Source: Coprobacillaceae bacterium
Lineage (GTDB): Bacteria; Bacillota_I; Bacilli_A; Erysipelotrichales; Coprobacillaceae
DNA length: 32,000 bases
Assembly: GCA_963675915.1 (NCBI GenBank)
Contig: OY780959.1
Location: 360,001-392,000, forward strand
Direction of reading: 5' to 3'
The notes under the pieces were generated by a model. It did no database searches, was not told the origin of the DNA, and was given only the letters and a program-made list of their open reading frames with translations. Position numbers and translations under genes: made by a program. Within the stretch, counting starts at the first letter, position 1, and each line of letters starts with the position of its first letter. This document shows positions 4,379-30,488 of this stretch, one piece after another.

Positions 4379-6163
4379 GTGATCAAATTGATGGAAGATA
4401 TGACAAAAGAAGAACTTATCGAAGCGTTCAAACAACGTGAACAGGAACTCTATGCCAAAATCGAATCCGACCGTATTTCAAAAGAAAAACTTATTAAAGA
4501 AAAGAAGAATTTATCTGCCGATAATAAGAAATTGACTTCCGATATTGATAAAATGGCAGCTGAAATCAAAGAACGCAAACTTGAACTACAACAGAAAAAC
4601 GAATACATCAAATTATTGGAAAACGCCCGCTACAGCTCCCAACGCAACAATATTAAGGAATATAACCAAGGTCCTGATCTGTTTAGTCTAATCGGTGTTG
4701 ATTTTGATAATGCTACTGAAACCGAAGAATTCGAAACTACGGAAATCAAAGGTTACAAAAGAAAAGTTAGAATCCCCAAAGAAAAACATATCAATTATGA
4801 CCATCTCAAAACCAATATAATTACAGAAGAAACTCCTGATGGTTTCGACGTTTGCGATCTTTGTGGTACAACTATGACAATCAAAAAATACGATGAAAGA
4901 AAAGAACTTGTCTATACACCCGCCAAAGTTGAATTGAATATTTACCGTACACCGGTATACGAATGTGTTGCTTGTCAGGAACACAACTTGGAAGGTAAAT
5001 CATCGTACAAGAAAGTTCCTGGAAGACAACCGGTTATCAAGGGAAGCATTGCATCGCCATCACTGATTGCAACTATAATGGACATGAAATATTTAAAGGG
5101 TTTGCCACTGGCTGCTCAGGAAAAACGTTTCCTTGAAAATGACATCGTCATCCCTAGACAGAATATGGCCAACTGGATGATCAAGGCATCGGTTCATCTT
5201 AACCTGTTGTTTGAGTGCATGCACAAAGACTTGTTGTCCATGGAAGTGATCCACTGCGATGAAACCACCACCCAGGTTCTAAAGGAAGAAGGCAAAGAAC
5301 CTCAAAGCAACTCTTACATGTGGGTGTTCAGAAGTAACCAGTATGATGCTCCGATTATCTTGTATCGTTATGATCCAACTCGCTCAAAAAAGGTTGTTGA
5401 GGACTTTATCGGTGATTACTCCAATCATATGGTTACCGATGCTTATATTGCTTACGAGTCATTGGATAATGTCACCAATTGCTTCTGCCATGTCCATGCT
5501 TTCCGCTATTTCCGTGAAGCCTTGGATGTACTGCCAAAAGGCAGCAATAAAAACCAAAGTTACGAATACAAATGCTATCGCTATTACAAAAAAGTATTCG
5601 AAGCAAAAAACAAAATTGAACAGGCTGCTAAGGGAAAATATCCAAAGAACCGGGATAAATATTTTCAATATATTCATAAGGGTCGAAAAGATGTCGTAAA
5701 GCCGATCTACGATAAGTTTTTAGCGTACCTTAAAGAAATAATCCTGTTGCCCGAAGTTAATATGAAACCAACCTTGCTTAAGGCAATCAAATATCTGATG
5801 AACCACGAAAAGGAATTCAGCGAGGTATTTAATAACCCGAAAGTTCCATTCGACAATTCAAGCACGGAGCGAGCTATCAGACCGTTTGTCGTATCAAGGA
5901 ATCGATGTAAATTCTATACAAGCCCCAAAGGAGCGCAAGCCGCAGCGATAATCTATTCGATACTGTTGAGCGCCCAGGAAAACAAGCTGTCACCGTACAT
6001 GTACATGACGTACGTACTGGAACGTCTTCCGGGAATCGATCCTACTGATGAAGAAGAAATTAGAAAACTACTACCCTACAATAAGGAACTGCCAAGATAT
6101 CTGCGTCAATTGACAGCGAAGGAAATCAAAGAACTAAAAAAAGGAATCCCAAGACGGAAATAA
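4379..6163 (+). CDS. tnpC: IS66-family DDE transposase TnpC
   Basis: It has an N-terminal coiled coil, a zinc finger (CDLCG...CVACQ) and DDE-region motifs HCDETTTQVL, VTDAYIAYESL and NSSTERAIRPF. The GTG start lies behind GAAAGAGGTGG. Confidence 0.9.
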   Translation: MIKLMEDMTKEELIEAFKQREQELYAKIESDRISKEKLIKEKKNLSADNKKLTSDIDKMAAEIKERKLELQQKNEYIKLLENARYSSQRNNIKEYNQGPDLFSLIGVDFDNATETEEFETTEIKGYKRKVRIPKEKHINYDHLKTNIITEETPDGFDVCDLCGTTMTIKKYDERKELVYTPAKVELNIYRTPVYECVACQEHNLEGKSSYKKVPGRQPVIKGSIASPSLIATIMDMKYLKGLPLAAQEKRFLENDIVIPRQNMANWMIKASVHLNLLFECMHKDLLSMEVIHCDETTTQVLKEEGKEPQSNSYMWVFRSNQYDAPIILYRYDPTRSKKVVEDFIGDYSNHMVTDAYIAYESLDNVTNCFCHVHAFRYFREALDVLPKGSNKNQSYEYKCYRYYKKVFEAKNKIEQAAKGKYPKNRDKYFQYIHKGRKDVVKPIYDKFLAYLKEIILLPEVNMKPTLLKAIKYLMNHEKEFSEVFNNPKVPFDNSSTERAIRPFVVSRNRCKFYTSPKGAQAAAIIYSILLSAQENKLSPYMYMTYVLERLPGIDPTDEEEIRKLLPYNKELPRYLRQLTAKEIKELKKGIPRRK

Positions 6164-6292
6164 ACTGTCCCTGGATTCCTTTTCACTTACCCTCGAATAT
6201 TCTCCCACCGCTCTATTTGACGCATACGATATAAATACTAGAACAAAATTCACATAATTGTAACATTACATATGTGTTATTATTCTCATATA

Positions 6293-8725: not shown

Positions 8726-8728
8726 ACA

Positions 8729-9997
8729 ATGATTTCAAATGGTGTTGTCACAATCTTTGAGGATAAACAAAAAAAGCTGAATCTTTCTACTCAGCAATTC
8801 AATGATATCAACGAGATGAAAACAATTGTTGGTGAAGGAAATATTATTTTACAACATGACGGCAATCTGTTGGTAAGAGGGTATATTGGATTTGTCCAAG
8901 TGAATCAAACAAGGTTGCTAGTATATCCAAAAATATCAAATAGACTTGACGATGAAATGGAAAAGAAGCGGTCATTGCATATTTTCATTAGAATGCTTGC
9001 CTTTACAGGATTTGATAGTGTTAAAAAGACGCTTGATTCGCTAATGATGGATAAGTATCAAGGAGATATCCTCGAAATATTCATCGGCCTGTTTGTAGAT
9101 GAACTGGCACTGCAATTTAGTCGCGACATGAATCGTGGTTATAATAATATATTAGAAAATCAGTCATTTATCAAAGGAAAAGTTGATTTCCCAGAAACGG
9201 TAAAACGCAATAGTTTCCGCCGGCATATCCATACCGTCCGCTATGATCAGTTTACCGAAAATATTCTCATCAATCGTATTTTTAAATCGGTTATCATCAA
9301 TTTGAGCAAAGTAACAAAAATAAACAAGAACAAGATTGGCTTGAAGAAATTGATGCTTTGGCTGGAAGATGTTGATCAAATTAATTTGGATGATCAAATC
9401 TGGGATAGAGTGGTATTCAATCGTAATAGCAAAAACTACGAACCATCGTATAACTTGGCAAAAATGTTTTACTATAATTCAAGCCCCAACCTGAATCAGG
9501 GGGCTGATCTTGTGTTTAGTTTTCTTGTACCTGCGAATCAGCTTTTTGAGATGTACCTATACAAGACTTTATTACCGGGATTTACAAAAGACCAAGTGGT
9601 AAATTACCAAGGTCCAATGAAATATCTGGCTAGAAATTCAACTGAAAATATTTTCAGGTTGCGACCGGATATCACAATAACCAGAGATCACAAAGTAGAA
9701 CATCTTATTGACGCAAAATACAAGGACATCAGTTGTGATTATGGTAAACTCAAGATTTCCCAAAGTGATATTTATCAAATGCTTGCCTACAGCGTTCGAT
9801 ATCAGTGCAATAATGTTATGCTGGTATATCCAAAGTTTCTTGATGATGACAATGAACAGATATTGGTGGATCAACTAATGATCTCAAATTATGAAAAGAA
9901 TATTGTCATAAAGATTATCAAGATAGATTTGGAAATTGATCCTTATTTATTACTCCAAAGGTTGAAACTAGAAATATGCGAGTCTGATAATTTATGA
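8729..9997 (+). CDS. mcrC: McrC-family PD-(D/E)xK nuclease subunit
   Basis: RPDITI...HLIDAKYK is a nuclease motif and LFEMYLYKTLL is a McrC-like segment. The gene lies directly after the McrB-like gene. Confidence 0.85.
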   Translation: MISNGVVTIFEDKQKKLNLSTQQFNDINEMKTIVGEGNIILQHDGNLLVRGYIGFVQVNQTRLLVYPKISNRLDDEMEKKRSLHIFIRMLAFTGFDSVKKTLDSLMMDKYQGDILEIFIGLFVDELALQFSRDMNRGYNNILENQSFIKGKVDFPETVKRNSFRRHIHTVRYDQFTENILINRIFKSVIINLSKVTKINKNKIGLKKLMLWLEDVDQINLDDQIWDRVVFNRNSKNYEPSYNLAKMFYYNSSPNLNQGADLVFSFLVPANQLFEMYLYKTLLPGFTKDQVVNYQGPMKYLARNSTENIFRLRPDITITRDHKVEHLIDAKYKDISCDYGKLKISQSDIYQMLAYSVRYQCNNVMLVYPKFLDDDNEQILVDQLMISNYEKNIVIKIIKIDLEIDPYLLLQRLKLEICESDNL

Positions 9998-10022: not shown

Positions 10023-11228
10023 ATGTTAGGAGCGATAATAGGTGATATTGTTGGGAGCCCATATGAATTTGACTGTAATAATATCAAGATCAAGGATTTC
10101 CCTCTATTTTCTGAAGTATCGAGGTTTACCGATGATTCAATTATGACTATTGCGGTTGCCCAGGCAGTAATCAACGGTTATGGCTCAAAAGAAAAGACGA
10201 AATCCGAAGCTATAAAATCAATGCAAGCATTAGGGCGGAAATATCCCAATGCAGGATACGGGACTAATTTCATTAACTGGATCTATGAGGATAATCCTAA
10301 GCCCTATAATAGTTATGGGAACGGTTCGGCTATGAGAGTCTCGGCAGTTGCCTGGATTTACAATAATCTCAAAGAGGTAGAAGAATTCGCTGAGGTTACT
10401 GCTGCAGTGTCGCATGACCATCCGGAAGGAATAAAAGGGGCAAAAGCAACTGCTGCAGCAATTTTCCTTGCCAGACAGGGTGCAAATAAGAGTTATATAC
10501 AAAAGCATATAACGAATACATATCACTATAATTTGGACCTCAGCTGTGAAGAAATTCGTCGATATTATCGGCATGTTGAATCATGTCAGGAAACGGTGCC
10601 TGAAGCAATCATTGCTTTTCTTGAAGGAAATAGTTTTGAGGATGTGATAAGGCTGGCGGTATCTTTAGGGGGAGACAGCGATACATTGACGGCGATTGCA
10701 GCAAGTATTGCAGAAGCATATTACCATGTCCCTGAAGAAATCAAAAGAAAATCCTGTTCCATTTTGGATGAATATTTGAAAACTTTACTTGTGTCGTTTG
10801 ATGTGTTCCGAAGTAATATTATTGAAAGACGAAAAAAGATATTTGATGATTTGATGTCAAGTAAACCATACTTTGATAAGGAGAGTAAAACGCAATGGAC
10901 TGAAGCAAATCGGGACGGCAATCAAGTTCGATTTGCGTACACTGTGTATGGTAAAGAAGTTGAATTGCTGCAGCGCTTTGCTCAAAGTGGAGATTTTACT
11001 GATTTTGATTACCATGATACCTTGGACAATTTTGGCTTGAGTATGGACTTGGATCTATACCAGAGAGCAGCTGAAAATTCTTGCCCTCTATTGTTAAGGG
11101 CAATGCTTACAAGTATCGTTCGTCAAGAAAGATTCAATGATGGACTGATTGCTAGAGCGATAGAAACTGGAACTATAAGCGCTATTTTGGATTCCTATAG
11201 CAAACAACTTAATTCGGAGTGTTTGTAA
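10023..11228 (+). CDS. ADP-ribosylglycohydrolase (ARH/DraG family) fused to an unassigned C-terminal domain of about 120 aa
   Basis: ARH hallmarks are GAIIGDIVGSPYEF, FTDDSIMT, YGNGSAMRVSAVAW, HDHPEGIKGA and LGGDSDTLTAIAASIAEA. AGGAGGA at 10012-10018 precedes the start, 25 nt after the mcrC stop. Confidence 0.85.
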   Translation: MLGAIIGDIVGSPYEFDCNNIKIKDFPLFSEVSRFTDDSIMTIAVAQAVINGYGSKEKTKSEAIKSMQALGRKYPNAGYGTNFINWIYEDNPKPYNSYGNGSAMRVSAVAWIYNNLKEVEEFAEVTAAVSHDHPEGIKGAKATAAAIFLARQGANKSYIQKHITNTYHYNLDLSCEEIRRYYRHVESCQETVPEAIIAFLEGNSFEDVIRLAVSLGGDSDTLTAIAASIAEAYYHVPEEIKRKSCSILDEYLKTLLVSFDVFRSNIIERRKKIFDDLMSSKPYFDKESKTQWTEANRDGNQVRFAYTVYGKEVELLQRFAQSGDFTDFDYHDTLDNFGLSMDLDLYQRAAENSCPLLLRAMLTSIVRQERFNDGLIARAIETGTISAILDSYSKQLNSECL

Positions 11229-13206: not shown

Positions 13207-14454
13207 ATGGATAAAAAAGAACAAGAATACGTAGCGTTGATGCGCCATCGGATCATTCATGACATCATTACCGGAAATTATGATGCTGCATGGTCTAAGA
13301 ATCAGGCGATTACGGAAGCTACCAAGAAAGTCTATAAGAGTTTCGACAACCGTGATTTCACTGTCTCAAGCAGTACCATCTCCAGATGGATTGCTGCTTA
13401 CGAAGAAAAAGGCTTCGATGGATTGATTCCTCAAAAGCGGAGTGATTGTGGCAAGTCAAGAAGACTGGATGATGACATCGTTGAAACAATCAAATATTAT
13501 AAGACAACCTATCCTAGATTGCCGGCAACTGTAATATACGGCAAGTTGATTGAGAAAGGAATCATCAAGAAAACTGATGTTTCCCTATCAACCGTTAACC
13601 GATGTGTCAATCAGATAAAGTCGGAATTGCGGCTTTCAAACAAGAAAGACATGCGTCGCTACGAAGTGCCCCATATCAATATGAACTGGGCTGGCGACAG
13701 TTCGGTCGGCCCTTACATAACCATTAATGGCAAGAAGAACCGGACATACATGATTGCCCTGATCGATGATGCTTCAAGGATGATCGTCCATCTTGATTTG
13801 TATTTGAATGACAACACAGTCAATTTGATGGATACCATGAAAAGTGCGGTAACAAAATATGGAGTTCCTGAGATGTTCAGGTTTGACAACGGCTCCAATT
13901 ATCGAAATCACCAGATCAAGATGATTGCAGCAAGGATTAATTCAACCATTAGCTACTGCAAACCGTACTCGCCGGAAGGAAAATCAAAAATTGAGCGGGT
14001 GTTTCGGACGATCAAAGATCAGTTCTTCGCCCAAATAAACATAAAAGATTACACAAACAATCTAGAAGGTTTGAAGCAGGATTTAAGCCAGTTCATCAAT
14101 GATTACAACAACAAGGTGCATTCGTCTTTGAATGGATTGACACCTCATCAACGTTTTTTTCAGGAAAGCAACCTTATCAAAAGGCTTGATGATGACTTTA
14201 TCGACAACACTTTCCTGTTCGAAGTAGAGCGGTCTGTCAGTACTGATTCGGTAATCAAAATAGATAATCGGGAATACGAGATTGATTATATCTATTCTGG
14301 TGAAAGGCATATGTTCCGATATACTCCGGACTTGGAAAACGTCTATATAGTCAACAAGAATACCGGCGAACTGGAACGGATTCACCTACTTGATAAAAAC
14401 GCCAATTCAAAAGTAAAACGAGTGCAGCCAAAATTATGCGGAGGAGAAGATTAA
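13207..14454 (+). CDS. DDE transposase (rve/integrase core with Mu-transposase-like C-terminal barrel)
   Basis: An N-terminal HTH is present (SSSTISRWIAAYEEKGFDGL). The candidate D, D, E triad is NWAGDSSV, FRFDNGSNYRN and PEGKSKIERVFRTIK. The C-terminal VIKIDNREYEI...FRYTPDLENVYIV is Mu-like. The RBS is GGAGG. Confidence 0.85.
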   Translation: MDKKEQEYVALMRHRIIHDIITGNYDAAWSKNQAITEATKKVYKSFDNRDFTVSSSTISRWIAAYEEKGFDGLIPQKRSDCGKSRRLDDDIVETIKYYKTTYPRLPATVIYGKLIEKGIIKKTDVSLSTVNRCVNQIKSELRLSNKKDMRRYEVPHINMNWAGDSSVGPYITINGKKNRTYMIALIDDASRMIVHLDLYLNDNTVNLMDTMKSAVTKYGVPEMFRFDNGSNYRNHQIKMIAARINSTISYCKPYSPEGKSKIERVFRTIKDQFFAQINIKDYTNNLEGLKQDLSQFINDYNNKVHSSLNGLTPHQRFFQESNLIKRLDDDFIDNTFLFEVERSVSTDSVIKIDNREYEIDYIYSGERHMFRYTPDLENVYIVNKNTGELERIHLLDKNANSKVKRVQPKLCGGED

Positions 14455-15257
14455 TGGAAAAATATTGGACCAGATATGGATTGGAATTCAATCCGTTTAT
14501 CAAGAACTCAAAGAATTTATTTATTGAAACAAGTGAATACCAGGAATTGAAAGTACGCCTTAACAGCCTTTTTGAAATCAAGGGTTTCGGACTAATAGTC
14601 GGTGAACCCGGCCATGGCAAAACAACCATGATCAGAAACTATATCAAAACACTCCCCAAATCAGCTTACAAGATAATTTATTTGTCAATGTCGACCCTTA
14701 CAGTCAAGGAGTTCTATATGCAACTAGCTGAGTCGCTGGATCTGACTCCTCGGTATCGAAAGAATGATCTGTTCAGGGAGATCCAATCAGCCATAAACCA
14801 GTTGATTTACGAAAAAAGGATTACCCCGGTGTTTATCTTTGATGAATGTAATTACATGAATAACGCCATTCTTAATGATTTGAAGATGATCTTCAATTTT
14901 GATATGGATTCCAAGGATCATGCTGTAGTCTTGATGGTCGGATTGCCGACAATAACAAGGAACCTGAAATTAACCGCTCATGAACCATTGCGCCAGCGAA
15001 TGATTATCAATTACAAACTTGAGCCATTGAACAAGAGTGAAAGTCTTGCTTATATCAAAGACAAGCTCCAAGGCGGAAAAACAATTCAAGAAGTGTTCAA
15101 TGATAATGCAATTGAGGCAATCATCAATGCATCCAACGGCACCTGTCGGGTTATTGATCGGATATGTGACCGGGCAATGTTTATCGGAGCAATCAGAAAA
15201 ATCGAAGTAATTGATTCCGATTTAATCCTAGAAACAATCGAAGAGGTAGTAATTTGA
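14454..15257 (+). CDS. AAA+ ATPase transposition helper (ExeA/TniB/MuB-like)
   Basis: YGLEFNPF...LIVGEPGHGKTT (Walker A) and VFIFDECN (Walker B) are present. The ATG overlaps the transposase stop (TAATG). GGAGGAG lies upstream. Confidence 0.8.
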   Translation: MEKYWTRYGLEFNPFIKNSKNLFIETSEYQELKVRLNSLFEIKGFGLIVGEPGHGKTTMIRNYIKTLPKSAYKIIYLSMSTLTVKEFYMQLAESLDLTPRYRKNDLFREIQSAINQLIYEKRITPVFIFDECNYMNNAILNDLKMIFNFDMDSKDHAVVLMVGLPTITRNLKLTAHEPLRQRMIINYKLEPLNKSESLAYIKDKLQGGKTIQEVFNDNAIEAIINASNGTCRVIDRICDRAMFIGAIRKIEVIDSDLILETIEEVVI

Positions 15258-17030: not shown

Positions 17031-17124
17031 ATTGAGGTTCTTCATCTAACTATATTGTATGCGTCAAATAGAGCGGTGGGAGAATATTTAATGGTATGCA
17101 AAAAGGAATCCGGGGGACAGTTTG

Positions 17125-18906
17125 TTACCGTCTTGGGATTCCTTTTTTGAGGCCCTTGATCTCCTTCGTGGTCAATTGACGCAGGTATGTTGGCAGTTCC
17201 TTATTGTAGGGTAGTAGTTTCCTGATTTCATCTTCATCACTAGAATCTATTCCCGGCAGCCTTTCCAGTACGTACTCCATGTACATGTACGGTGACAGCT
17301 TGTTTTCCTGGGCGCTTAACAGTATCGAATAGATTATCGCTGCGGCTTGCGCTCCTTTGGGGCTTGTATAGAATTTACATCGATTCCTTGATACGACAAA
17401 CGGTCGTATAGCCCGTTCCGTGCTTGAATTGTCGAATGGAACTTTCGGGTTATTAAATACCTCGCTGAATTCCTTTTCGTGGTTCATCAGATATTTGATT
17501 GCCTTAAGCAAGGTTGGTTTCATATTAACTTCGGGCAACAGGATTATTTCTTTAAGGTACGCTAAAAACTTATCGTAGATCGGCTTTACGACATCTTTTC
17601 GACCCTTATGAATATATTGAAAATATTTATCCCGGTTCTTTGGATATTTTCCCTTAGCAGCCTGTTCAATTTTGTTTTTTGCTTCGAATACTTTTTTGTA
17701 ATAGCGATAGCAAGTGTATTCGTAACTTTGATTTTTATCGGTGCCTTTTGGCAGTACATCCAAGGCTTCCCGGAAATAGCGAAAGGCATGAACGTGGCAA
17801 AAACAGTTGGTGACATTATCAAGCGACTCGTAAGCACCATAGGCGTCTGTTACCAGATAGTGGGAGTAATCACCGATGAAGTCTTCAACAACCCGTTTTG
17901 AACGACTAGGATCATAACGGTACAAGATAATTGGTTCGTCATACTGATTGCTCCGTAGAACCCAAAGATATGATTTGCTTTGCGCTGGTTTGCCGTCTTC
18001 CTTTAGAACCTGGGTGGTGGTTTCATCGCAGTGGATCACTTCCATGGACAACAAGTCTTTGTGCATGCACTCAAACAACAGGTTAAGATGAACCGATGCC
18101 TTGATCATCCAGTTGGCCATATTCTGTCTAGGGATGACGATGTCATTTTCAAGGAAACGTTTTTCCTGAGCAGCCAGTGGCAAACCCTTTAAATATTTCA
18201 TGTCCATTATAGTTGCAATCAGTGATGGCGATGCAATGCTTCCCTTGATAACCGGTTGTCTTCCAGGAACTTTCTTGTACGATGATTTACCTTCCAAGTT
18301 GTGTTCCTGACAAGCAACACATTCGTATACCGGTGTACGGTAAATATTCAATTCAACTTTGGCGGGTGTATAGACAAGTTCTTTTCTTTCATCGTATTTT
18401 TTGATTGTCATAGTTGTACCACAAAGATCGCAAACGTCGAAACCATCAGGAGTTTCTTCTGTAATTATATTGGTTTTGAGATGGTCATAATTGATATGTT
18501 TTTCTTTGGGGATTCTAACTTTTCTTTTGTAACCTTTGATTTCCGTAGTTTCGAATTCTTCGGTTTCAGTAGCATTATCAAAATCAACACCGATTAGACT
18601 AAACAGATCAGGACCTTGGTTATATTCCTTAATATTGTTGCGTTGGGAGCTGTAGCGGGCGTTTTCCAATAATTTGATGTATTCGTTTTTCTGTTGTAGT
18701 TCAAGTTTGCGTTCTTTGATTTCAGCTGCCATTTTATCAATATCGGAAGTCAATTTCTTATTATCGGCAGATAAATTCTTCTTTTCTTTAATAAGTTTTT
18801 CTTTTGAAATACGGTCGGATTCGATTTTGGCATAGAGTTCCTGTTCACGTTGTTTGAACGCTTCGATAAGTTCTTCTTTTGTCATATCTTCCATCAATTT
18901 GATCAC
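17125..18906 (-). CDS. tnpC: IS66-family DDE transposase TnpC (copy B; diverges from copy A in blocks in its C-terminal half)
   Basis: The first roughly 303 aa are identical to copy A. Clustered substitutions follow (for example DGKPAQSKSYLWVL against EGKEPQSNSYMWVF). Confidence 0.9.
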   Translation of the reverse strand: MIKLMEDMTKEELIEAFKQREQELYAKIESDRISKEKLIKEKKNLSADNKKLTSDIDKMAAEIKERKLELQQKNEYIKLLENARYSSQRNNIKEYNQGPDLFSLIGVDFDNATETEEFETTEIKGYKRKVRIPKEKHINYDHLKTNIITEETPDGFDVCDLCGTTMTIKKYDERKELVYTPAKVELNIYRTPVYECVACQEHNLEGKSSYKKVPGRQPVIKGSIASPSLIATIMDMKYLKGLPLAAQEKRFLENDIVIPRQNMANWMIKASVHLNLLFECMHKDLLSMEVIHCDETTTQVLKEDGKPAQSKSYLWVLRSNQYDEPIILYRYDPSRSKRVVEDFIGDYSHYLVTDAYGAYESLDNVTNCFCHVHAFRYFREALDVLPKGTDKNQSYEYTCYRYYKKVFEAKNKIEQAAKGKYPKNRDKYFQYIHKGRKDVVKPIYDKFLAYLKEIILLPEVNMKPTLLKAIKYLMNHEKEFSEVFNNPKVPFDNSSTERAIRPFVVSRNRCKFYTSPKGAQAAAIIYSILLSAQENKLSPYMYMEYVLERLPGIDSSDEDEIRKLLPYNKELPTYLRQLTTKEIKGLKKGIPRR

Positions 18907-19053
18907 TTGAATCCACCTCTTTCCACTAGTGGCATTGTAGCATAAAAAGCCCTGAAAGTCTTGATTTCACGGCAATTTATAAAAGATGTGAATAACTTCA
19001 AAAGGCAAAAGATAAACCCACAAAAAAATGTGAATTAATCTTATGCGTAGGGG

Positions 19054-19413
19054 CTATATCATTACTGAAATGTCCTTGAATGCCCTTTTCTGTTCAATTG
19101 CCAATCCATCAAGCAACCAACTCAACTGACGGATGTCAACAACCATTGAAGTGATATCTTCATCACCCTTGGGCCAGAAGAACTTATCTTTATTAAGCAG
19201 CTTCTTGGAGTGGATGACAAATCCGTTCTTGTCGAACTCCAGCATCTTGATGCTTTTCTTGGATCTGTTGCAAAAGATGTACAGGTTATTGGCGGTGGGG
19301 TCAAGATACAGGCTGTGGGATACAATCGCGCTTAACCCGGCGTAGCTTTTCCTAAGATCAGTTGCCCCAGGAACCAAATAGATATTGTCGAAGTCTTCAA
19401 ACCTAAGCTTCAT
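19054..19413 (-). CDS. tnpB: IS66 TnpB (copy B)
   Basis: The protein is identical to that of copy A. Confidence 0.85.
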   Translation of the reverse strand: MKLRFEDFDNIYLVPGATDLRKSYAGLSAIVSHSLYLDPTANNLYIFCNRSKKSIKMLEFDKNGFVIHSKKLLNKDKFFWPKGDEDITSMVVDIRQLSWLLDGLAIEQKRAFKDISVMI

Positions 19414-19765
19414 TGATCATACCTATCAGTTTAGCCAGAGTTTCCAAGTCTGTCGAGTCGTCAACCGAAATAGTAGCCTTGCCAATATTGACATCGAACC
19501 CCTTGGAAACAACTTTACTGTTGCAATCAACAATATCCAGCCTGACAAGAGCTGTAGTAAATCCAGAATCCTTAACTTCATCTCTTGAGCGATTCAAATA
19601 TGGCTTAGAATACTTGTGGTAGCAAAAAGCATTGTACGAAACATCGTTAGCCAAACACCATTTTTTAATGGTCAGATCACTATTGGCAGCCTCAGTAAAT
19701 ATCACCTGCCACTGATCATCAGAATAATTAAAATCATCACACCTCCAATTCGATGTGATAATCAT
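19403..19765 (-). CDS. tnpA: IS66 TnpA (copy B)
   Basis: It differs from copy A by one residue (DDFNY against DDLNY). Confidence 0.75.
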   Translation of the reverse strand: MIITSNWRCDDFNYSDDQWQVIFTEAANSDLTIKKWCLANDVSYNAFCYHKYSKPYLNRSRDEVKDSGFTTALVRLDIVDCNSKVVSKGFDVNIGKATISVDDSTDLETLAKLIGMINEA

Positions 19766-19833
19766 ACCATCAATGACCTCGACAACCTACCACCGCTCTA
19801 TTTGACGCATACGGTAGAACTCCAGGATGCTGT

Positions 19834-20001: not shown

Positions 20002-21177
20002 TCAACCTTGGCTTAAATATGGCACTTTATCTGTTTTTTCCCAGGGAAGATCCAAGTCATCTCTTCCAAAGTGACCGTAAGTTGAAACCTGGCGGTAGAT
20101 CGGCCGCCGCAAATCTAAATCCTGAATAAATGCAGCCGGACGAAGATCAAAATGCTTATTAATTAATTTTTCTATTTTCGCCTCTGCAATTTTATTTGTT
20201 CCAAATGTATGGACCGCGATAGAGACTGGATGGGATACCCCAATCACGTATGAAATTTGAATTTCACACCTGTCCGCCAAACCGGCAGCCACAACATTTT
20301 TGGCAACATACCTGGCAGCATATGATGCGGAGCGGTCAACTTTAGTCGGATCTTTTCCGGAAAACGAACCGCCACCATGGCGGGCATAACCGCCGTAGGT
20401 ATCAACCATGATTTTTTTGCCTGTCAAGCCGGTATCACCTTGCGGCCCACCGATGACAAATCTACCGGCGGCATTGATATAATATTTTGTCTTATCATCA
20501 AGCAGATGATTGGGAATTACTTTTTTGATAGCTTTATCAATTATATCGCGCTCAATTATTTCGTGGCTAATGGTATCAGAATGTTGACAAGCAACTACGA
20601 CAGCCTCAACCCGAATTACCTTTTGATCCAGGTATTCGACTGTTATCTGGGTCTTTCCATCCGGTCGCAGATATTCTAATTCACCTGATTTACGCAAATC
20701 AGCTAGTTTTTTTGCCAATTTATGGGCTAACGTGATGGGCAGGGGCATCAACTCGGGGGTTTCATTGCAGGCATATCCATACATAATTCCCTGATCGCCA
20801 GCGCCTATTTGATCCAGTACATCACTAGACCCCGCTCTGCTTTCAAGTGAAGTGCTGACTCCAGAGTCGATATCAGCGGATTGCTTGTCAATTCCGGTCA
20901 ATACGGAACAAGAATTGGCATCAAAGCCATATTCACCGGATGTATAACCAATTTCCCTGACAATGTTTCGGACGATTTGAGGAATATCTATATTACATTT
21001 TGTTGTAATCTGACCAGTAACCAGAACCAATCCCGTGCTGATGCAAATATCGCAGGCAACCCGTCCCTGCGGGTCCCTTTCCAAGATCGCATCCAAAATA
21101 CCATCGGAAATCTGATCACAGATTTTATCTGGATGTCCTTCTGTCACAGATTCAGAAGTAAAGAACCATTTTTTCAT
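20002..21177 (-). CDS. metK: S-adenosylmethionine synthetase
   Basis: [37 protein letters not shown] and [19 protein letters not shown] are canonical MetK motifs. The RBS is AAGGAG. Confidence 0.97.
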
Positions 21178-21974: not shown

Positions 21975-23462
21975 CTACGGGGCAACCGTTCTCATGACGC
22001 CTTTGATGGTTTGAAGTTTTGGAAAGTTTCGCCCATCAAGCGAGAAACGATAGTAGAATCCACTGGGAACTACTCTGCCCCAACGTTGACTGTGCCTGTT
22101 CTTGCGAACGGGCACTTTTATTGTTTGGGCCACGGCAACTAATTGCTTAATTCTTTTTCGCATCAGTGTTTTCTTATGGCTGTAGAAAGGATAGAGTAGA
22201 TTGTTTTCCATCAGCAGGTTATGAAGTTGTTTAATGTTGACCCGGTATTGGATATTCTCGTCATCATTTTTATTGAAAGTTGCCTCACTATTATGCCGGT
22301 GTCGGTGCTGTCCTGGGTTCCGGCTAAGATACATGTCAATCTCTTTCCTGATAACTCCCAGGATATTGTAAAGCACGATTTTACCATAGATGCAGCATTG
22401 TGATACGGTATCGGATTCGCTAATGTGACGCTCCAGTTCCATATCGGTTTTTAGCGTTTTATATGCCACCTCAATATCCCAACGTTTCGCATAAAGTTCG
22501 ATGATATCCGCGTGGCTGAACTCCTTTTTTGACAAACTGGTAAAGTATGTTATATCAGATTCAACGATTTCACCGAATTTATTAGTGTATCCATAAGTGA
22601 ATTTGACTACTCTGATTTTCACCTTGGGGTTATCTTCTCTGATTTTAAGGGCCTCAGGAGAGAAACGGAATCTTTTCCGCCATAGTCGGTCAACGTCAAC
22701 CTCGATCCACTCATCATTTGAAGTCATTTCGCTTACTTGCTTCTTGAATAAGTTGGACTTGGCACGGATGCAATAATCAAATCCCAAGTGCTCAAGATGG
22801 CTAATAAGCTCGACTGAGCCATAGTAGCGATCAGCAAGATAAATCACTTTCTTGCCACCAAACAGATTACCACAACGATAAAGGTGTTGGAAGGCAAGCG
22901 GAATTTCAGAGTAAGGGGCAGGTCTCATCATGAAATCCAAAAAGATGCCGTTAGTGACATCATATAGCCCGGCTGATTTGGATAGAACTTTCTTAACATC
23001 GAAAATATCTTTGACGTACTGGTTTTTCCAAAAGTCGAAGTTATAAATATTGTGGATGCTATAGGGAATTTCTAGAAAAGTCCCATCTTCAGCTAAAAGA
23101 GTATACCCTTTATATGTCTTAGGCAGCTTGCTTTGATAGAACTCCTTGGCAAACTCTTTAAATAAATATCTGAATACTGAAGGATTGAGTTTTTTGATGT
23201 CAACATTAAGAGCTTGCTTGGTAATCCTTTTTTCCAAACGGTTGGTGAAGCAAAAATACTTGGTCAAATCAGTGTTGGTGTTCTTGGAATTTCTAAAAAC
23301 AAAGTAGAGAATGACATCCCTGAAAGTCATAATCCGATTGCGAGTGAAATCAGAACTCCTGATTCGGGACAAAGCGCAAGTGGTATCGGAAGACAAGACA
23401 TCCGCGAAAGAATTGAAGAAATCAGACATCTGATTTGTCTTAACTACATTATTCATCGTCAT
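21975..23462 (-). CDS. IS4-superfamily DDE transposase, main body
   Basis: LLAEDGTFLEIP (D), IYLADRYYGS (D) and YAKRWDIEVAYKTLK (Y-2-R-3-E-6-K signature) are present. The track ORF runs up to 23642, but that upstream part overlaps the more plausible N-terminal ORF in another frame. Confidence 0.8.
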   Translation of the reverse strand: MTMNNVVKTNQMSDFFNSFADVLSSDTTCALSRIRSSDFTRNRIMTFRDVILYFVFRNSKNTNTDLTKYFCFTNRLEKRITKQALNVDIKKLNPSVFRYLFKEFAKEFYQSKLPKTYKGYTLLAEDGTFLEIPYSIHNIYNFDFWKNQYVKDIFDVKKVLSKSAGLYDVTNGIFLDFMMRPAPYSEIPLAFQHLYRCGNLFGGKKVIYLADRYYGSVELISHLEHLGFDYCIRAKSNLFKKQVSEMTSNDEWIEVDVDRLWRKRFRFSPEALKIREDNPKVKIRVVKFTYGYTNKFGEIVESDITYFTSLSKKEFSHADIIELYAKRWDIEVAYKTLKTDMELERHISESDTVSQCCIYGKIVLYNILGVIRKEIDMYLSRNPGQHRHRHNSEATFNKNDDENIQYRVNIKQLHNLLMENNLLYPFYSHKKTLMRKRIKQLVAVAQTIKVPVRKNRHSQRWGRVVPSGFYYRFSLDGRNFPKLQTIKGVMRTVAP

Positions 23463-23646
23463 ATACCAACCTTGGTTTCTTTTTAGCGAAGGCCGCTTTA
23501 AGATAAGGAACACTCTCCCCGTCGACAAGACCGAAATTAATAAGAACGCGGTGTTTAGACACACCATTTTCCCGATAAGACTCAACAAGTGCACAAAAAT
23601 AGGTATTATCTTTACCTTTATTGTTTTTAACAGCTCTGACAAACAT
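23449..23646 (-). CDS. N-terminal segment of the same transposase, in a different reading frame
   Basis: MFVRAVKNNKGKDNTYFCALVESYRENGVSKHRVLINFG resembles the conserved N-terminus I associate with IS1634-type transposases. It is offset by +1 from the main ORF. Confidence 0.6.
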   Translation of the reverse strand: MFVRAVKNNKGKDNTYFCALVESYRENGVSKHRVLINFGLVDGESVPYLKAAFAKKKPRLVYDDE

Positions 23647-24575: not shown

Positions 24576-24951
24576 TTTGAAAGGGTAAAGCTTTTTTTGG
24601 TCCTTTTACAAGTTTTATAATCAACTGAATTGTTGGCCAGATAAGTATCTATTGAGAATGCCAAGACATGAATAAGGTTAGAAATATTGCTTTTGCTTAT
24701 TTCTAAGCAAAATATCCCACCTTAATTCGACTCATAATATTAAAATTTGATAATTATTATACAAATATTCAAGATTTGATTTTGGTAAAATCTTATTAAG
24801 TGATACAATAGTGTTATAAGATAAATATTTGCAAGATAATTTGAATATTAGGGTTGGCGGGCATAATAATATGAGATCCGCATTAAATATTTGCGGATTG
24901 CCTGATTTGTTCCACCAATCCAATATGGATTAAATAGAGGAGGAAAAGGCA

Positions 24952-26331
24952 GTGAATAGAGATTATATTTACCAAGGCTACACCAGGACCTTATGCCATA
25001 TCTGCAAGAAACCGATTGATGGCAAAATTGTCTATAATAAAGAAGGCGTCTATATTCTAAAAAGCTGTCCGGAACACGGCGAATCGATGGTGTTGCTCGA
25101 AGAAGACTACCAATATCATCTCAGCAAACAGCGTTTCGACAAACCGGGAACTATAAGCAGTACTCAAACAGTGCTGGACAAGGGGTGTCCTTTCGATTGT
25201 GGTCTTTGCCCGTCCCATGATCAACATACTTGTATCGGCCTGATTGAAGTGACAACAAGGTGCAACCTGGGCTGTCCGACCTGTTATGCCCACAGTGGTG
25301 AGGGGAAAGACTTGGATATGGAGACCATTGGCAAGATGATGGACTTTTATATCGAGTCAGAAAACGGCCGGGCCGAAATCCTGCAAGTCAGCGGTGGTGA
25401 GCCGACCTTGCATCCTCAAGTTTTGGATATCATTCAAATGGCAAAAGACAAAGGGATTCATTATGTCATGCTCAATACCAATGGGCTCCGGATAGCTGAA
25501 GACATTACTTTTGCCAAGGCCTTAGGCAAATTTAGAGGCGGTTTTGAAGTATACCTTCAATTCGACGGTCTTGATGATGAAGTATATCAAAAACTTCGGG
25601 GTCGCAAACTAGTCGAAATTAAAAAGAAAGCTATTTTTAACCTGATGAAATTCAATGTTCCAGTAACTCTGGTATGTACAGTTGACAAAGGTGTCAACGA
25701 TGAGTTGCTTGGCGAAGTCCTTGCATATGGCATGGACAATGAATGCGTTCGTGGAGTTAACTTCCAGCCGGTCAGATTCTTTGGCAGAGTCGATTTCGAT
25801 CGTTGGCAAGAAAGAATCACCTTGTCAGGAATCCTTAACCGGATTGAACACCAGACCGAAGAAATGATTGGAAAAGATGCCTTCATTCCGCTTCCTTGTA
25901 ATGTTGAACGGGTGGCGATCTCATATCTGTTCAAGGACAAGAGTGGATTCATCCCAATCTTCAGTGACCGGGATGTCAGTCGATACAAGGATTACATCAG
26001 AAATACGTTTATGTTCAGTATGGAAGAAACGATGAAAGATCTCGAAGCAGCCGGGGAATCGATCATTCAATGTAGCTGTTGCGACATTATCGGGGACATC
26101 AAACGTTTTTTAAAACCGGCAATGTTGTTTAAATCCAAAGAGAAACGAATGGAATTCATCGATAAGAATGTCTTTAGAATCAGTGTAAGTGCCTTTGTTG
26201 ACATCTACGATTTTGACATGAAATCAGTCCAGAAAGAATGCGTTCATGTGATCACTCCGGATCTGAAGCGAATTCCGTTTTCAGCCTATAATATGATTCA
26301 TAGAGACAAATACGAAAAGTTCTACGAGTGA
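24952..26331 (+). CDS. Radical SAM enzyme with additional N-terminal metal-binding Cys motifs (COG1964 / tetraether-synthase-like pattern)
   Basis: The N-terminal CHIC...CPEHG is followed by GCPFDCGLCPSHDQHTC and then the radical SAM motif CNLGCPTCYA and SGGEPTLH. The GTG start follows GGAGGA. Confidence 0.8.
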   Translation: MNRDYIYQGYTRTLCHICKKPIDGKIVYNKEGVYILKSCPEHGESMVLLEEDYQYHLSKQRFDKPGTISSTQTVLDKGCPFDCGLCPSHDQHTCIGLIEVTTRCNLGCPTCYAHSGEGKDLDMETIGKMMDFYIESENGRAEILQVSGGEPTLHPQVLDIIQMAKDKGIHYVMLNTNGLRIAEDITFAKALGKFRGGFEVYLQFDGLDDEVYQKLRGRKLVEIKKKAIFNLMKFNVPVTLVCTVDKGVNDELLGEVLAYGMDNECVRGVNFQPVRFFGRVDFDRWQERITLSGILNRIEHQTEEMIGKDAFIPLPCNVERVAISYLFKDKSGFIPIFSDRDVSRYKDYIRNTFMFSMEETMKDLEAAGESIIQCSCCDIIGDIKRFLKPAMLFKSKEKRMEFIDKNVFRISVSAFVDIYDFDMKSVQKECVHVITPDLKRIPFSAYNMIHRDKYEKFYE

Positions 26332-26368
26332 GACAGATATAACATTTCCATAAGAAGGAAGGTGGCAA

Positions 26369-26968
26369 TTGGTGGCAATAACTTATGAGCTTATCATGAC
26401 AGGAATTATCGCAATAAGCATAGCTGGGCTCGTTGCTGCGATAATCGGGGATTTCTTTATGTACGATCAAAGCGAAGAAATCAAGACCGAGAAAAAGTCG
26501 ATTGTAGCAACTGGCAGCATGTTCATGTTCTATTTTATTTATCTGCTCTTTGTCATCAACAAATGGGGAATGATTGAAATAGAAAATGAGATGTTGAAGT
26601 CGGTATTGTTGACGGCCGGGACTTTGATGATTTCAACTGGTAGTGCAATCAATATTATCGCCAGGCTGCAGTTAAAAAGCAGCTGGGCCAATCATATCCG
26701 CATTTATGAAGATCAGAAGCTTTTGGATACCGGGACGTACGGAATTGTCAGACATCCTCTATACGCTTCGTTGATGCTGATGTTTTTTGGCGGGGCTATC
26801 GCATATGCCAACTGGTTAAGTGCTACGCTTACCGCACTGGTTTTCATTCCCTTCATGTATTACCGGGCAAAACAGGAAGAAGTGATGCTTGAAGTAGAGT
26901 TTGATGAGTACAAGCATTATAAAAAGACGACCGGGATGTTTTTTCCAAAGTTTAGACGATTGAAATAG
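26369..26968 (+). CDS. ICMT/PEMT-family membrane methyltransferase
   Basis: It is a multi-TM protein with GTYGIVRHPLYASLMLMFFGG, a motif typical of isoprenylcysteine carboxyl methyltransferase-like proteins. Confidence 0.7.
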   Translation: MVAITYELIMTGIIAISIAGLVAAIIGDFFMYDQSEEIKTEKKSIVATGSMFMFYFIYLLFVINKWGMIEIENEMLKSVLLTAGTLMISTGSAINIIARLQLKSSWANHIRIYEDQKLLDTGTYGIVRHPLYASLMLMFFGGAIAYANWLSATLTALVFIPFMYYRAKQEEVMLEVEFDEYKHYKKTTGMFFPKFRRLK

Positions 26969-27005
26969 GGCAATTTGTCCTGATTGTTCACTGGAGGTGA
27001 ATTGA

Positions 27006-27464
27006 ATGGCGAAATATAAAGTTGTAAGCATTTCAAAGAATGGCTTTGCTTTTTGCAGATACACCGTCGCCCTTTTGATCTGGAGTTCCTTGATTTTTCA
27101 GATTAAAGAACTCATGATCATCGTATTTATAATATTGGCTTCTTCTGCGATTTTAACTGTCAAACGGGCGCCGCTGGTGTGGCTGTACACTGTCACAATT
27201 GACAAGTTGTTCCCATCAAAAAGAGAAATTGTCAATGAAAAAGGCATGCGTTTTGCCCATACCCTGGGAACCACATTGGCAGCCATTGCTATCTTGTTTC
27301 TGTTTTTCATCAACGAAAAAGTCGGCTGGGGAGTAGTCTTCCTCTTTGCAGTGCTCAAGAGCTTCAGTGCTTTAGGCTATTGTTCTGGTTTGAAACTGTA
27401 TAATTGTCTGAACAATGGTCAGTGCTGTAGATTCAAAGGCCAGGAGAAAAATAAAAATGCTTGA
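27006..27464 (+). CDS. Small integral membrane protein with a C-terminal Cys-rich tail (possibly DUF4395-like)
   Basis: Four hydrophobic segments are present, plus RFAHTLG and the C-terminal GYCSGLKLYNCLNNGQCC. The family call is from memory only. Confidence 0.5.
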   Translation: MAKYKVVSISKNGFAFCRYTVALLIWSSLIFQIKELMIIVFIILASSAILTVKRAPLVWLYTVTIDKLFPSKREIVNEKGMRFAHTLGTTLAAIAILFLFFINEKVGWGVVFLFAVLKSFSALGYCSGLKLYNCLNNGQCCRFKGQEKNKNA

Positions 27465-28194
27465 TGAACATATCAAATTGGATGGCTTTGGGATTATGCC
27501 GAAGTTTTTTGGGATCTCGACCTACTCTATCTTGGTTGGACTAGGATTGATTGTCGGATTGATATATTATTTGGTTGATGCCAAAAAAAGACAGGCTCAT
27601 AACGAACATGCCATCGAAATTGTCGGAGCTGCATTATTATTTGGTTTCATTGGGGCCAAGGTCCCTTTGATTCTTGAAGGTTTGCCCCTGGAGAATATCA
27701 TTTTTGGCAAATCCATTGTTGGAGCATTGCTCGGGGGGATGCTGGGCGTGATTGTCATCAAAAGAATCAGAGGCATAAAAGCCCGGATGGGAAATATCAT
27801 TGCTCCCGCCATTGCCCTAGGCATGGCCATTGGGCGTTTGGGCTGTTTTTTCAATGGCTGCTGTTATGGCAAACCGGCTTCCTGGGGAGTCGATTTTGGC
27901 GATGGGATTTTAAGGTATCCGACCCAACTATTTGAAGTGGCTTTTCATCTTATTGCCTTTGTGATACTACATAATCTGAAAAATCGTGTGAAACGACCCG
28001 GTATTCTATTTCAGTACTATGTTTTGGCATATCTGGTATTCCGTTTCTTAATTGAATTTATCCGAGAAAACAAAGTCATAATGTTTAATCTTACCGTCTA
28101 TCAGTTGTTGTGTTTAGGGGGGATATTACTAATATCCTTAAGATTGATTTTAAGTGAAAGGAAAGTTGAAAATGAAAGAAAACAAGCAGGATGA
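27457..28194 (+). CDS. Lgt-family (prolipoprotein diacylglyceryl transferase-like) membrane protein, divergent paralog type
   Basis: IGRLGCFFNGCCYGKP and RYPTQLFEVAFH match Lgt family motifs. The ATG at 27457 follows AGGAGA and overlaps the preceding gene by 8 nt. Confidence 0.75.
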   Translation: MLDEHIKLDGFGIMPKFFGISTYSILVGLGLIVGLIYYLVDAKKRQAHNEHAIEIVGAALLFGFIGAKVPLILEGLPLENIIFGKSIVGALLGGMLGVIVIKRIRGIKARMGNIIAPAIALGMAIGRLGCFFNGCCYGKPASWGVDFGDGILRYPTQLFEVAFHLIAFVILHNLKNRVKRPGILFQYYVLAYLVFRFLIEFIRENKVIMFNLTVYQLLCLGGILLISLRLILSERKVENERKQAG

Positions 28195-28495
28195 ACAAGA
28201 TTTGAAAAAACCTGATAATCAAGGCGAGAAGAAACCGGGGATAGCTCGCTATTGTCTGATTGGCTGGATTGGTTCAGCTGCAATAATTAGTGGACTTATG
28301 CTTGCTACTGGCAATGGTTTTAATATGGCACCGATGGTTTTATTGTTTTCGGGAATTCTCTGGATTCCTATCACCCTGATTGCGGGAAGTATCAACAAAA
28401 AACGAGGTCGCAAGGCAGGATTAACGTTCATAGCTATTGGGGTCTTGATTACCTTATTCACTGTCGGAGGTTGTTTTGGCTCAATTATCAGCTAA
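28172..28495 (+). CDS. Small membrane protein (about 107 aa, 3 predicted TM segments)
   Basis: It overlaps the Lgt-like gene by 23 nt. A charged N-terminus is followed by hydrophobic segments. A GTG at 28154 is an alternative start. Confidence 0.55.
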   Translation: MKENKQDEQDLKKPDNQGEKKPGIARYCLIGWIGSAAIISGLMLATGNGFNMAPMVLLFSGILWIPITLIAGSINKKRGRKAGLTFIAIGVLITLFTVGGCFGSIIS

Positions 28496-30311: not shown

Positions 30312-30488
30312 ATGCATAAAATTGATTCTGAAGCTTGTCAGTTCTGTGGTGCTTGCAAAAGCGCATGTCCGCTTGAAGCAATAAGTAACCCAGAAGGTAC
30401 GATTTACTATGAAATCGACCCTGAGAAGTGTATTGATTGTGGGGCCTGTGAATCTGAGTGTGGTTTCGACGCTATTATTGTCGAGTAG
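30312..30488 (+). CDS. 2x[4Fe-4S] ferredoxin (58 aa), absent from the ORF track because it is below the size cut-off
   Basis: The translation is MHKIDSEACQFCGACKSACPLEAISNPEGTIYYEIDPEKCIDCGACESECGFDAIIVE. It contains two CxxCxxCxxxCP-type motifs. The RBS is AAAGGAGAA. Confidence 0.85.
   Translation: MHKIDSEACQFCGACKSACPLEAISNPEGTIYYEIDPEKCIDCGACESECGFDAIIVE

Follow-up and report, generated by a model that had tools for sequence, protein, structure and literature searches.

A conserved five-gene membrane cassette that combines a Tes-related radical SAM enzyme with a divergent Lgt-family transferase and a small protein with a lipobox-like C-terminal cysteine

In Escherichia coli, the transferase Lgt of the Lgt-Lsp-Lnt lipoprotein pathway has its active site on the membrane's periplasmic side, where its signature motif recognises phosphatidylglycerol (PG), with E151 touching PG in the first binding site, and where its HGGL motif is proposed to bind the lipobox peptide; H103, N146 and E151 are required for activity (PMC4728403). 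A different kind of lipid chemistry is carried out by radical S-adenosylmethionine (SAM) enzymes of the Tes/GDGT-MAS family, of which GDGT-MAS (MJ0619, PDB 7TOL) binds bacterial phospholipids and couples lipid tails. Mss, the membrane-spanning lipid synthase of Thermotoga and Thermoanaerobacter, is a radical SAM enzyme acting on bacterial acyl chains and is discussed as Tes-like in structure and mechanism. Here we describe a block of five genes in a Coprobacillaceae bacterium in which relatives of Lgt and of Tes are encoded together. It occupies positions 24952-28495 of the forward strand in a stretch of 32,000 nt, hereafter the window (positions 360,001 to 392,000 of contig OY780959.1, assembly GCA_963675915.1), and had been singled out by a first-pass annotation, made from the sequence alone, as an operon that might remodel membrane lipids or lipoprotein anchors.

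The cassette encodes, in this order and all on the + strand, a radical SAM enzyme of the Tes/GDGT-MAS family (24952-26331), an integral-membrane SAM-dependent methyltransferase of the ICMT/PEMT superfamily (26369-26968), a DUF4395 membrane protein (27006-27464), a non-canonical Lgt-family transferase (27457-28194) and a small membrane protein with three transmembrane (TM) helices (28172-28495). Its parts all come from known families; the system as a whole appears undescribed. No description of it was found in the literature searched (DUF4395, COG1964, Tes together with diacylglyceryl transferase, Lgt paralogues and C-terminal lipobox), which for Mss, too, reports no cassette with Lgt-like, ICMT-like and DUF4395 genes. 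NCBIfam release 20 holds no dedicated model for any of the five proteins, and none of the cassette enzymes reaches an NCBIfam equivalog cutoff. The earlier impression of an undescribed system is upheld by these searches. The cassette was rejected as a known defence system, PADLOC yielding only a generic viperin-type radical SAM match.

Gene order and the three upstream proteins

An alignment-based metagenome scan gave 80 loci, and hidden Markov models (HMMs) built from five cassettes were run on all open reading frames (ORFs) of all these loci; an earlier single-protein genome scan had returned only two close loci. At all 65 loci with a radical SAM gene of at least 50% identity and at least 2 kb of downstream sequence, the radical SAM gene is followed by the ICMT, DUF4395 and LGT genes, always in that order and on one strand, and five further loci, reached via other cassette genes, are consistent up to their contig ends. 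Starting from the Lgt-like or DUF4395 proteins, the same cassette was recovered, among others in a 97%-identical sister strain (L100), in Alkalibaculum sp. M08DMB and in a metagenome-assembled genome (MAG) labelled Chlorobiales. Relatives of the radical SAM protein run into the thousands, and the closest 120, with 53-74% identity, carry source labels that include Clostridia, Coriobacteriia, Candidatus Falkowbacteria, a Desulfobulbaceae MAG and archaeal MAGs. Context look-ups placed the five-gene order of relatives amid entirely different neighbours, the same order being present in the Desulfobulbaceae MAG and in a MAG labelled Woesearchaeota. The cassette is shared by many anaerobic microbes, and its source labels include Bacillota, with one cultured isolate, Alkalibaculum sp. 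M08DMB (GCA_009362815.1), and MAGs labelled candidate phyla radiation (CPR) and DPANN. This gene arrangement is far beyond chance. Strict linkage combined with unrelated flanks counts for the five genes being one module, and the single transcription-unit-like cassette put forward in the first-pass annotation holds, its first four genes being conserved at 65 of 65 loci.

The spacing of the five co-directional genes in the window, 37, 37, -8 and -23 nt with the chosen starts, was reproduced from the ORF list, as were the radical SAM motifs quoted earlier (C15xxC18...C39PEH42G, GC79PFDC83GLC86PSHDQHTC94 and C104x3C108x2C111). The Lgt-like gene overlaps the DUF4395 gene by 8 nt and the small-protein gene overlaps the Lgt-like gene by 23 nt. 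For the Lgt-like protein we took the start ATG at 27457 (245 aa; a longer ORF runs from 27415), and for the small protein the ATG at 28172 (107 aa; a longer ORF runs from 28154), a length that the public source annotation likewise calls. HMM searches returned the families already proposed, namely Zn_ribbon_HMPTM plus Radical_SAM, ICMT/PEMT, DUF4395 and LGT, and left the fifth protein without a family.

The radical SAM protein (459 aa, GTG start) combines the Pfam domains PF23545 (Zn_ribbon_HMPTM) and PF04055 (Radical_SAM) and matches PDB 7TOL over residues 10-456 (E=1.8e-73). Three of the four metal sites of GDGT-MAS are present: the rubredoxin-like CX2CX20CX2H site (C15, C18, C39, H42), the N-terminal auxiliary [4Fe-4S] site of Cys3-His type (C79, C83 and C86 with H89/H92) and the CX3CX2C motif (C104, C108, C111), the motifs being identical in the two enzymes. 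All cysteines of these three sites are invariant in an alignment of 31 sequences. Its full-length homology and shared rubredoxin and N-terminal cluster motifs confirm the earlier assignment to the COG1964-type Tes/GDGT-MAS family. In contrast to GDGT-MAS, in which Y459 is strictly conserved among the archaeal homologues, the cassette enzyme has V412, S413 and V433 at the positions aligned with C438, M439 and Y459, and has a C-terminal cysteine set of its own (C316 and C430 invariant, C376 90% conserved). It also differs from Tes in its setting, the hosts being mostly Bacillota by source label and the gene lying beside genes of protein-lipidation type.

Among curated models, the best-scoring one is that of the TrsS radical SAM (seleno)protein (NF045646), attributed to Haft & Tolstoy 2025 in a citing paper (PMC13188914), to which the window enzyme aligns end to end (residues 11-452) with 359 bits against a cutoff of 490 and with no in-frame UGA seen. 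The Tes model NF045702 gives 304.9 bits against a cutoff of 450, the best stretch covering residues 11-319. TrsS is the best-matching model for 31 of 31 cassette radical SAM enzymes, with best E values in that set of 1.3e-114 for TrsS and 6.4e-107 for Tes. Since none of the 31 reaches either cutoff, the cassette enzymes are, by sequence comparison, an unnamed sister clade of Tes and TrsS. That they might couple lipid tails through C-C bonds is an analogy with Tes only. One homologue of the cassette type, P0035 (585 aa), was tried as a fusion protein and rejected as such, its extra length being a G/D/N/S-rich low-complexity insertion of about 125 residues right after CX3CX2C, which is an unusual place within the radical SAM core.

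The methyltransferase (199 aa) scores above cutoff with both PF04191 (35.5 bits, cutoff 25) and PF04140 (34.8 bits, cutoff 24), and its C-terminal, SAM-binding half aligns to Ma-ICMT (PDB 4A2N, residues 97-192, E=6e-11), in agreement with the ICMT/PEMT assignment made before. With 64.1 bits it lies under the cutoff of 160 of the isoprenylcysteine methyltransferase equivalog NF040696. Its RHPLY and EE motifs are invariant in 70 orthologues.

The DUF4395 protein (152 aa) matches PF14340 with 55.6 bits (cutoff 24.5), and the proteins of loci L001 and L002 likewise score above this cutoff. Its predicted architecture consists of a short strand plus two TM helices, repeated once and followed by a C-terminal helix and tail; the AlphaFold2 (AF2) model has a pLDDT of 90.6. 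In the PDB, DUF4395 found no sequence match at E<=10 and a best Foldseek E of 1.5. Alignments of 68 and 23 orthologues show C17, H85, C126, C134 and C140 to be invariant and C141 to be near-invariant, and these residues all lie in K/R-rich segments that are presumably cytoplasmic by the positive-inside rule. The gathering of these Cys and His residues in such segments suggests that a metal or Fe-S site is turned towards the soluble radical SAM enzyme.

The Lgt-like transferase and its small neighbour

The fourth protein matches PF01790 with 122 bits and reaches 73.3 bits with the equivalog TIGR00544, for which the cutoff is 118.9, while its scores with other Lgt equivalogs are far below their cutoffs. 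Against the PDB, Foldseek gave E. coli Lgt (5AZB) as the only match of its AF2 model (pLDDT 85.6; TM-score 0.69, probability 1.00). Taken together, the family match, the sub-cutoff equivalog score and the fold confirm that this is a divergent Lgt. It shares with E. coli Lgt the fold, seven TM helices and a signature motif that loop charges predict, by the positive-inside rule, to face outward as in the E. coli enzyme.

Conservation was read from alignments of 60 and 36 orthologues, and E. coli Lgt 5AZB was aligned to provide the reference numbering. R143, G154, Y235, R239 and E243 have counterparts (R127, G138, Y192, R196 and E200) that are 95-100% conserved in 60 orthologues, and so is the RxPTQxxE motif, which corresponds to RxPxQxxE in E. 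coli Lgt. The differences are concentrated in the signature motif, which reads GRxGNFxNxExxG in E. coli Lgt and invariantly GRxGCxxxGCCxG in the 60 orthologues (G126-R127-L-G129-C130-FFN-G134-C135-C136-Y137-G138 in the window protein), so that N146 becomes C130, N149 becomes G134 and E151 becomes C135 or C136 (59-60 of 60). The HGGL motif is replaced by VGAL in the window protein and by (V/T/I)GGL as the family pattern; the equivalent of H103 is V, T or I, and a histidine occurs there in none of the 60. The head domain is short. Since the equivalent E. coli residues select PG and bind the lipobox peptide, the changed signature and the missing H103 argue, at the level of sequence, for an altered specificity towards both donor and acceptor.

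Direct cooperation of the Lgt-like and radical SAM activities is supported by P0324 (671 aa), a natural fusion in which a Cys-type LGT domain (residues 5-219, with GRLGCLHAGCCFG) is followed by Zn_ribbon_HMPTM and Radical_SAM domains, the radical SAM part being 31% identical to the window enzyme over 448 residues. The fusion fits the predicted topology, because the C-terminus of Lgt is cytoplasmic. The N-terminal auxiliary-cluster motif of P0324 looks degenerate (KCCSGPAHKTC).

The ORF 3' of the LGT gene almost always encodes a membrane protein of 56-148 residues which is too divergent for a family HMM, and no family was found for the fifth protein in Pfam or NCBIfam. Its C-terminus is built on one plan: a K/R cluster, a hydrophobic helix of about 17-20 residues, the motif [LVI][FL]G[AGS]C and a hydrophobic, hypervariable tail of 1-16 residues. 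In the window this C-terminal module (28397-28492, +) reads KKRGRK-AGLTFIAIGVLITLFTVGG-C101-FGSIIS, with a hydrophobic helix of 17 residues running to TVGG and with the invariant Cys as residue 101 of 107 (codon 28472-28474). Of 58 non-redundant loci, 55 have a protein equivalent to it in position and motif; among these 55, Gly stands at -2 in 52, A, G or S stands at -1 in 44, and the residue at -3 is mostly Phe. A strict form of the motif was counted in 50 of 275 ORFs that come right after an LGT gene, as opposed to 1 of 4217 other ORFs at the same loci. By the positive-inside rule the K/R cluster is predicted to be cytoplasmic and the Cys to lie near the outer face.

A classical lipoprotein signal peptide has a K/R-containing n-region and an h-region followed by the lipobox [LVI][ASTVI][GAS]C. 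The K/R cluster, helix, Cys and A/G/S at -1 of the small protein agree with this layout, Gly at -2 and Phe at -3 depart from it, and the motif presumably fits the looser PROSITE-type lipoprotein pattern rather than the classical consensus. The C-terminus of the small protein appears to have lipoprotein-signal-peptide geometry displaced to the protein end. Unlike a lipoprotein precursor, the protein has its Cys near the C-terminus and no mature domain behind it, with one exception: a paralogue at locus L056 (4864-5544) carries a 115-residue Cys-rich domain beyond the motif Cys, as in a true lipoprotein. No precedent for a C-terminal lipobox was found in the literature searched. Because of this invariant C-terminal lipobox-like motif, the small protein is the best substrate candidate of the cassette, a role that the first-pass annotation had missed. 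The annotation had pointed instead to the lipoproteins with leucine-rich repeats (LRR) encoded on both sides of the cassette, and this part of it is rejected: this organism and its 97%-identical sister strain are the only ones in which LRR genes stand beside the cassette, neither these genes nor other recurrent neighbours of that kind occur at some 60 other loci, and the flanking LRR proteins have ordinary N-terminal lipoboxes (LTGC and LSGC). Its wider proposal of a pathway acting on lipids or lipoprotein anchors is in part retained, with the conserved cassette and the family assignments in its favour and the loss of the LRR substrates to its detriment.

Clustering of about 1,000 flanking ORFs brought out just two neighbours that recur, namely the small protein and a type-I ATP-binding cassette (ABC) exporter (ABC_membrane plus ABC_tran), whose gene lies directly 3' of the small-protein gene at 9 of about 60 loci (for example L045, 9520-11412, 630 aa) and which could be a flippase or exporter for the cassette product. 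Two or three small-protein genes follow the LGT gene in tandem at seven loci (L042, L048, L050, L056, L082, L088 and L097). At L056 and L095 a further copy lies inside the cassette: L056 has copies at 2608-2946, 4864-5544 and 5816-6040, one of them between the radical SAM and ICMT genes, and at L095 one copy is Cys-less (VVGSFMFL) and a second, between the ICMT and DUF4395 genes, keeps its Cys. At two loci (L002, 6127-6504; L087, 9209-9607) an extra membrane protein of about 125-132 aa, of no family and devoid of the Cys motif, is encoded between the LGT gene and the motif-bearing small protein, and at L002 a DUF2207_C membrane protein comes next after the cassette.

Possible products of the cassette

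We favour, with a probability of roughly 0.4, the reading that the five genes form a dedicated, self-contained membrane module, which would in the end yield the small protein in lipid-modified form or a peptide cleaved from that protein. On the outward side, the Lgt-like enzyme would take a diacylglyceryl-type lipid off a phospholipid donor and attach it to the small protein's invariant Cys, which is positioned like a lipobox Cys, after a cytoplasmic K/R cluster and one TM helix; the exchange of N146, N149 and E151 for Cys, Gly and Cys would suit a non-standard donor lipid. On the cytoplasmic face, the radical SAM enzyme might modify the hydrocarbon tails of this lipid through hydrogen abstraction, in the manner of C-C coupling by Tes and Mss, and the ICMT/PEMT-family enzyme might methylate either the lipid, at its head group, or the lipidated Cys, at its carboxylate. 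DUF4395, with its cytoplasmic Cys5-His site, would most likely bind a metal or Fe-S cluster and dock the radical SAM enzyme or feed it electrons. Gene order, conservation, families, motifs and one fusion are observed; from them we infer the chemical steps, their order and their sidedness. That the Lgt-like active site and the Cys of the small protein lie on the same predicted side was counted in favour of lipidation. Also counted for it were the strict linkage, the near-constant motif and the extra copies of the small protein, the retained Lgt fold and residues, the altered signature, the P0324 fusion, the GDGT-MAS-like architecture and metal sites of the radical SAM enzyme, and the SAM-binding motifs of Ma-ICMT that the methyltransferase keeps. 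The scheme resembles the Lgt pathway in that the K/R cluster, TM helix, small residues and Cys of the small protein recall a lipoprotein signal peptide. It departs from that pathway in its acceptor motif, which sits C-terminally in a dedicated small membrane protein from the same cassette, has Gly at -2 and is followed by a hydrophobic tail, and in the constant linkage of the Lgt-like gene to genes for the radical SAM, ICMT-like and DUF4395 proteins.

It also recalls eukaryotic CaaX processing, with a Cys a few residues from the C-terminus and a lipid transferase and an ICMT-family methyltransferase encoded together. There are clear differences: the cassette transferase is of Lgt type and not a prenyltransferase, the tail of 1-16 residues is not CaaX-like, the cassette lacks an Rce1/Ste24-type protease, the Cys is predicted to be at the outer side whereas ICMT sites are cytoplasmic, and the methyltransferase scores below the isoprenylcysteine equivalog cutoff. 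The likeness to Mss lies in its being a radical SAM enzyme, kinship with the cassette enzyme being by description only.

Several points weigh against the lipidation reading. With H103, N146 and E151 missing, transferase activity of the Lgt-like protein is not assured, and its CCC-type clade may extend beyond this cassette, the CCC-type signature being borne by 89 of the best 150 Lgt relatives, taken as 50%-cluster representatives. The radical SAM protein falls below the Tes and TrsS cutoffs and is without C438, M439 and the strictly conserved Y459 of GDGT-MAS, and the fusion of the two activities is known from a single database sequence (P0324). The sequence behind the Cys is a hydrophobic tail, unlike the polar sequence of ordinary lipoproteins, and the Cys may for that reason sit within the bilayer as a ligand or a catalytic thiol instead of an acceptor. 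Finally, the ICMT-type and radical SAM sites are cytoplasmic, the Cys is predicted outside and an ABC exporter adjoins in only 9 loci; with its steps on opposite membrane faces, the lipidation model needs lipid flipping.

The cassette could also be read as a pathway for lipids alone, in which a membrane lipid is made or remodelled, for instance into a diacylglycerol lipid that is cross-linked, macrocyclic or membrane-spanning and bears a methylated head group. The substrates of the Lgt-like protein would then be lipids or a small thiol, and the small protein would be a subunit with a structural or regulatory role. In favour of this, bacterial phospholipids are bound by GDGT-MAS, an enzyme that couples lipid tails, bacterial Tes homologues are proposed to be lipid enzymes, methyltransferases of the PEMT and LmtA types target lipid head groups, the cassette is present in MAGs labelled CPR and DPANN, and the PG-recognition residues of Lgt are replaced. 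We nevertheless hold this pathway to be somewhat doubtful, as it leaves unexplained both the invariant Cys of an otherwise hypervariable small protein, located at the position and on the side of the Lgt acceptor, and the accumulation of extra paralogues with variable tails.

Rather unlikely, in our estimate, is a lipidation of a kind not known so far, in which a private Lgt paralogue puts a lipid tailored by the radical SAM enzyme, methylated and cross-linked, macrocyclic or membrane-spanning, on the C-terminal Cys of dedicated small proteins. If true, the outcome would be either a protein joined covalently across the bilayer or a family of lipopeptides that are secreted and have hypervariable tails, and this would be the first link of Tes-type lipid chemistry to protein lipidation and a bacterial functional analogue of CaaX processing.

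The small proteins could alternatively be precursors in a lipopeptide factory akin to those for peptides that are ribosomally synthesised and post-translationally modified (RiPPs), with the K/R-TM-GxC part as leader. Once the Cys is lipidated, a protease (signal peptidase II or a different one) would free the Cys with its 1-16 following residues, perhaps methyl-esterified by the ICMT-like enzyme and exported. Signal peptidase II favours A, G or S at -1, as found in 44 of 55 small proteins, and a conserved 'leader' before a hypervariable tail, the extra small-protein copies (in tandem at seven loci) and the type-I ABC exporter gene directly downstream in 9 loci would all fit. Yet the cassette holds no protease gene, the tails go down to one residue and show no conserved features, the exporter is absent at most loci, and the target of ICMT-type enzymes is the lipidated Cys's own carboxylate, not that of a distal residue. 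A peptide factory of this kind seems to us distinctly unlikely.

Still more improbable is a transmembrane metal-binding or thiol-redox relay that serves the radical SAM enzyme through the Cys5-His site of DUF4395, the CxxxxCC of the Lgt-like protein and the GxC of the small protein, without any lipid transfer. It would account for cysteines conserved at 94-100% across three membrane proteins and for the electron source that a radical SAM enzyme requires, a ferredoxin gene being close by in this organism; but similarity to known relays such as DsbB, VKOR and CcdA is absent, both the cavity fold of Lgt and its phospholipid-binding arginines are kept, the cysteines lie on opposite membrane faces, and the methyltransferase is left without a role.

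Hardly credible, lastly, is that the Lgt-like gene is the general prolipoprotein diacylglyceryl transferase of the organism amid unrelated or accessory neighbours: PF01790 is matched with 122 bits, some public annotations name the protein Lgt and the organism does make classical lipoproteins (the flanking LRR proteins with LTGC and LSGC), but the protein stays at 73 bits against the TIGR00544 cutoff of 118.9 and far under other Lgt equivalogs, lacks H103, N146 and E151 which are required in E. coli, is tied to the radical SAM cassette in 65 of 65 loci and fused to a radical SAM domain in P0324, and is labelled merely 'family protein' by PGAP in some orthologues.

Surroundings of the cassette and significance

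The 376-nt intergenic region upstream of the cassette (24576-24951, +) is AT-rich and contains promoter-like sites, among them a sigma-70-like site at 24782-24809 (TTGGTA-16-TACAAT with a TG extension); such sites are consensus matches only and number 20, the shuffles giving 12.6 +/- 4.0. The GTG at 24952 has a GGAGG Shine-Dalgarno sequence 8 nt 5' of it. A small hairpin at 24874-24900 (GATCCGCA-loop-TGCGGAT), some 50 nt ahead of the radical SAM start codon and within the 5' leader, matches no Rfam family and lies in a region that is 96% identical throughout in the sister strain. Within the five-gene block no convincing terminator was seen, the terminator scan overall giving no more than the shuffle expectation. 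At Rfam gathering thresholds no riboswitch or RNA leader was found at the cassette, the sole match in the window being the tmRNA.

In both strains the cassette is bracketed by the SAM synthetase gene metK (20002-21177, - strand) and by the gene for a 58-aa ferredoxin with two [4Fe-4S] clusters (30312-30488, + strand), possibly as supplier of the cofactor and as electron donor, respectively, for the radical SAM enzyme; neither gene is conserved as a cassette neighbour in other loci, and at Rfam gathering thresholds no SAM riboswitch was found upstream of metK. An IS4-type DDE transposase gene (21975-23642, - strand) separates metK from the first LRR lipoprotein gene. The 97%-identical sister strain lacks this element at that position, which makes it a recent insertion just upstream of the cassette's neighbour.

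At the other end of the window, smpB (486-941) directly precedes the tmRNA gene (945-1293; tag peptide GNRQQTFAFA), 3' of which follow a recombinase fragment (1805-2167, - strand), a LysM protein gene (2347-2799) and insertion sequences. The DNA past the tmRNA gene looks like an island inserted at the tmRNA locus. Two inverted IS66 copies (3473-6171 and 17114-19812; 2699 nt, 97% complementary) bracket 10.9 kb with McrB/McrC-like genes (6431-9997), a gene for an ADP-ribosylglycohydrolase with DUF6508 (10023-11228) and an IS21-like pair (13207-15257). This IS66-bounded segment resembles a composite transposon with defence genes. In the sister strain, the ADP-ribosylglycohydrolase/DUF6508 gene is found instead about 10 kb downstream of the cassette.

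The bacterial homologues of Tes are a recognised open question, being mostly uncharacterised, and are invoked for brGDGTs (branched glycerol dialkyl glycerol tetraethers) and other membrane-spanning lipids that serve as palaeoclimate proxies. With its fixed partners, the radical SAM clade of the cassette has a function that is directly testable, and its presence in cultured Alkalibaculum sp. M08DMB makes experiments feasible. The cassette also provides a first functional context for DUF4395 and for a prokaryotic ICMT-family enzyme. Lgt is regarded as a single-function, essential housekeeping enzyme and as an antibiotic target; a large Cys-motif clade of Lgt with a dedicated substrate would widen the roles of this family and would affect the automatic annotation of genes as 'lgt'.

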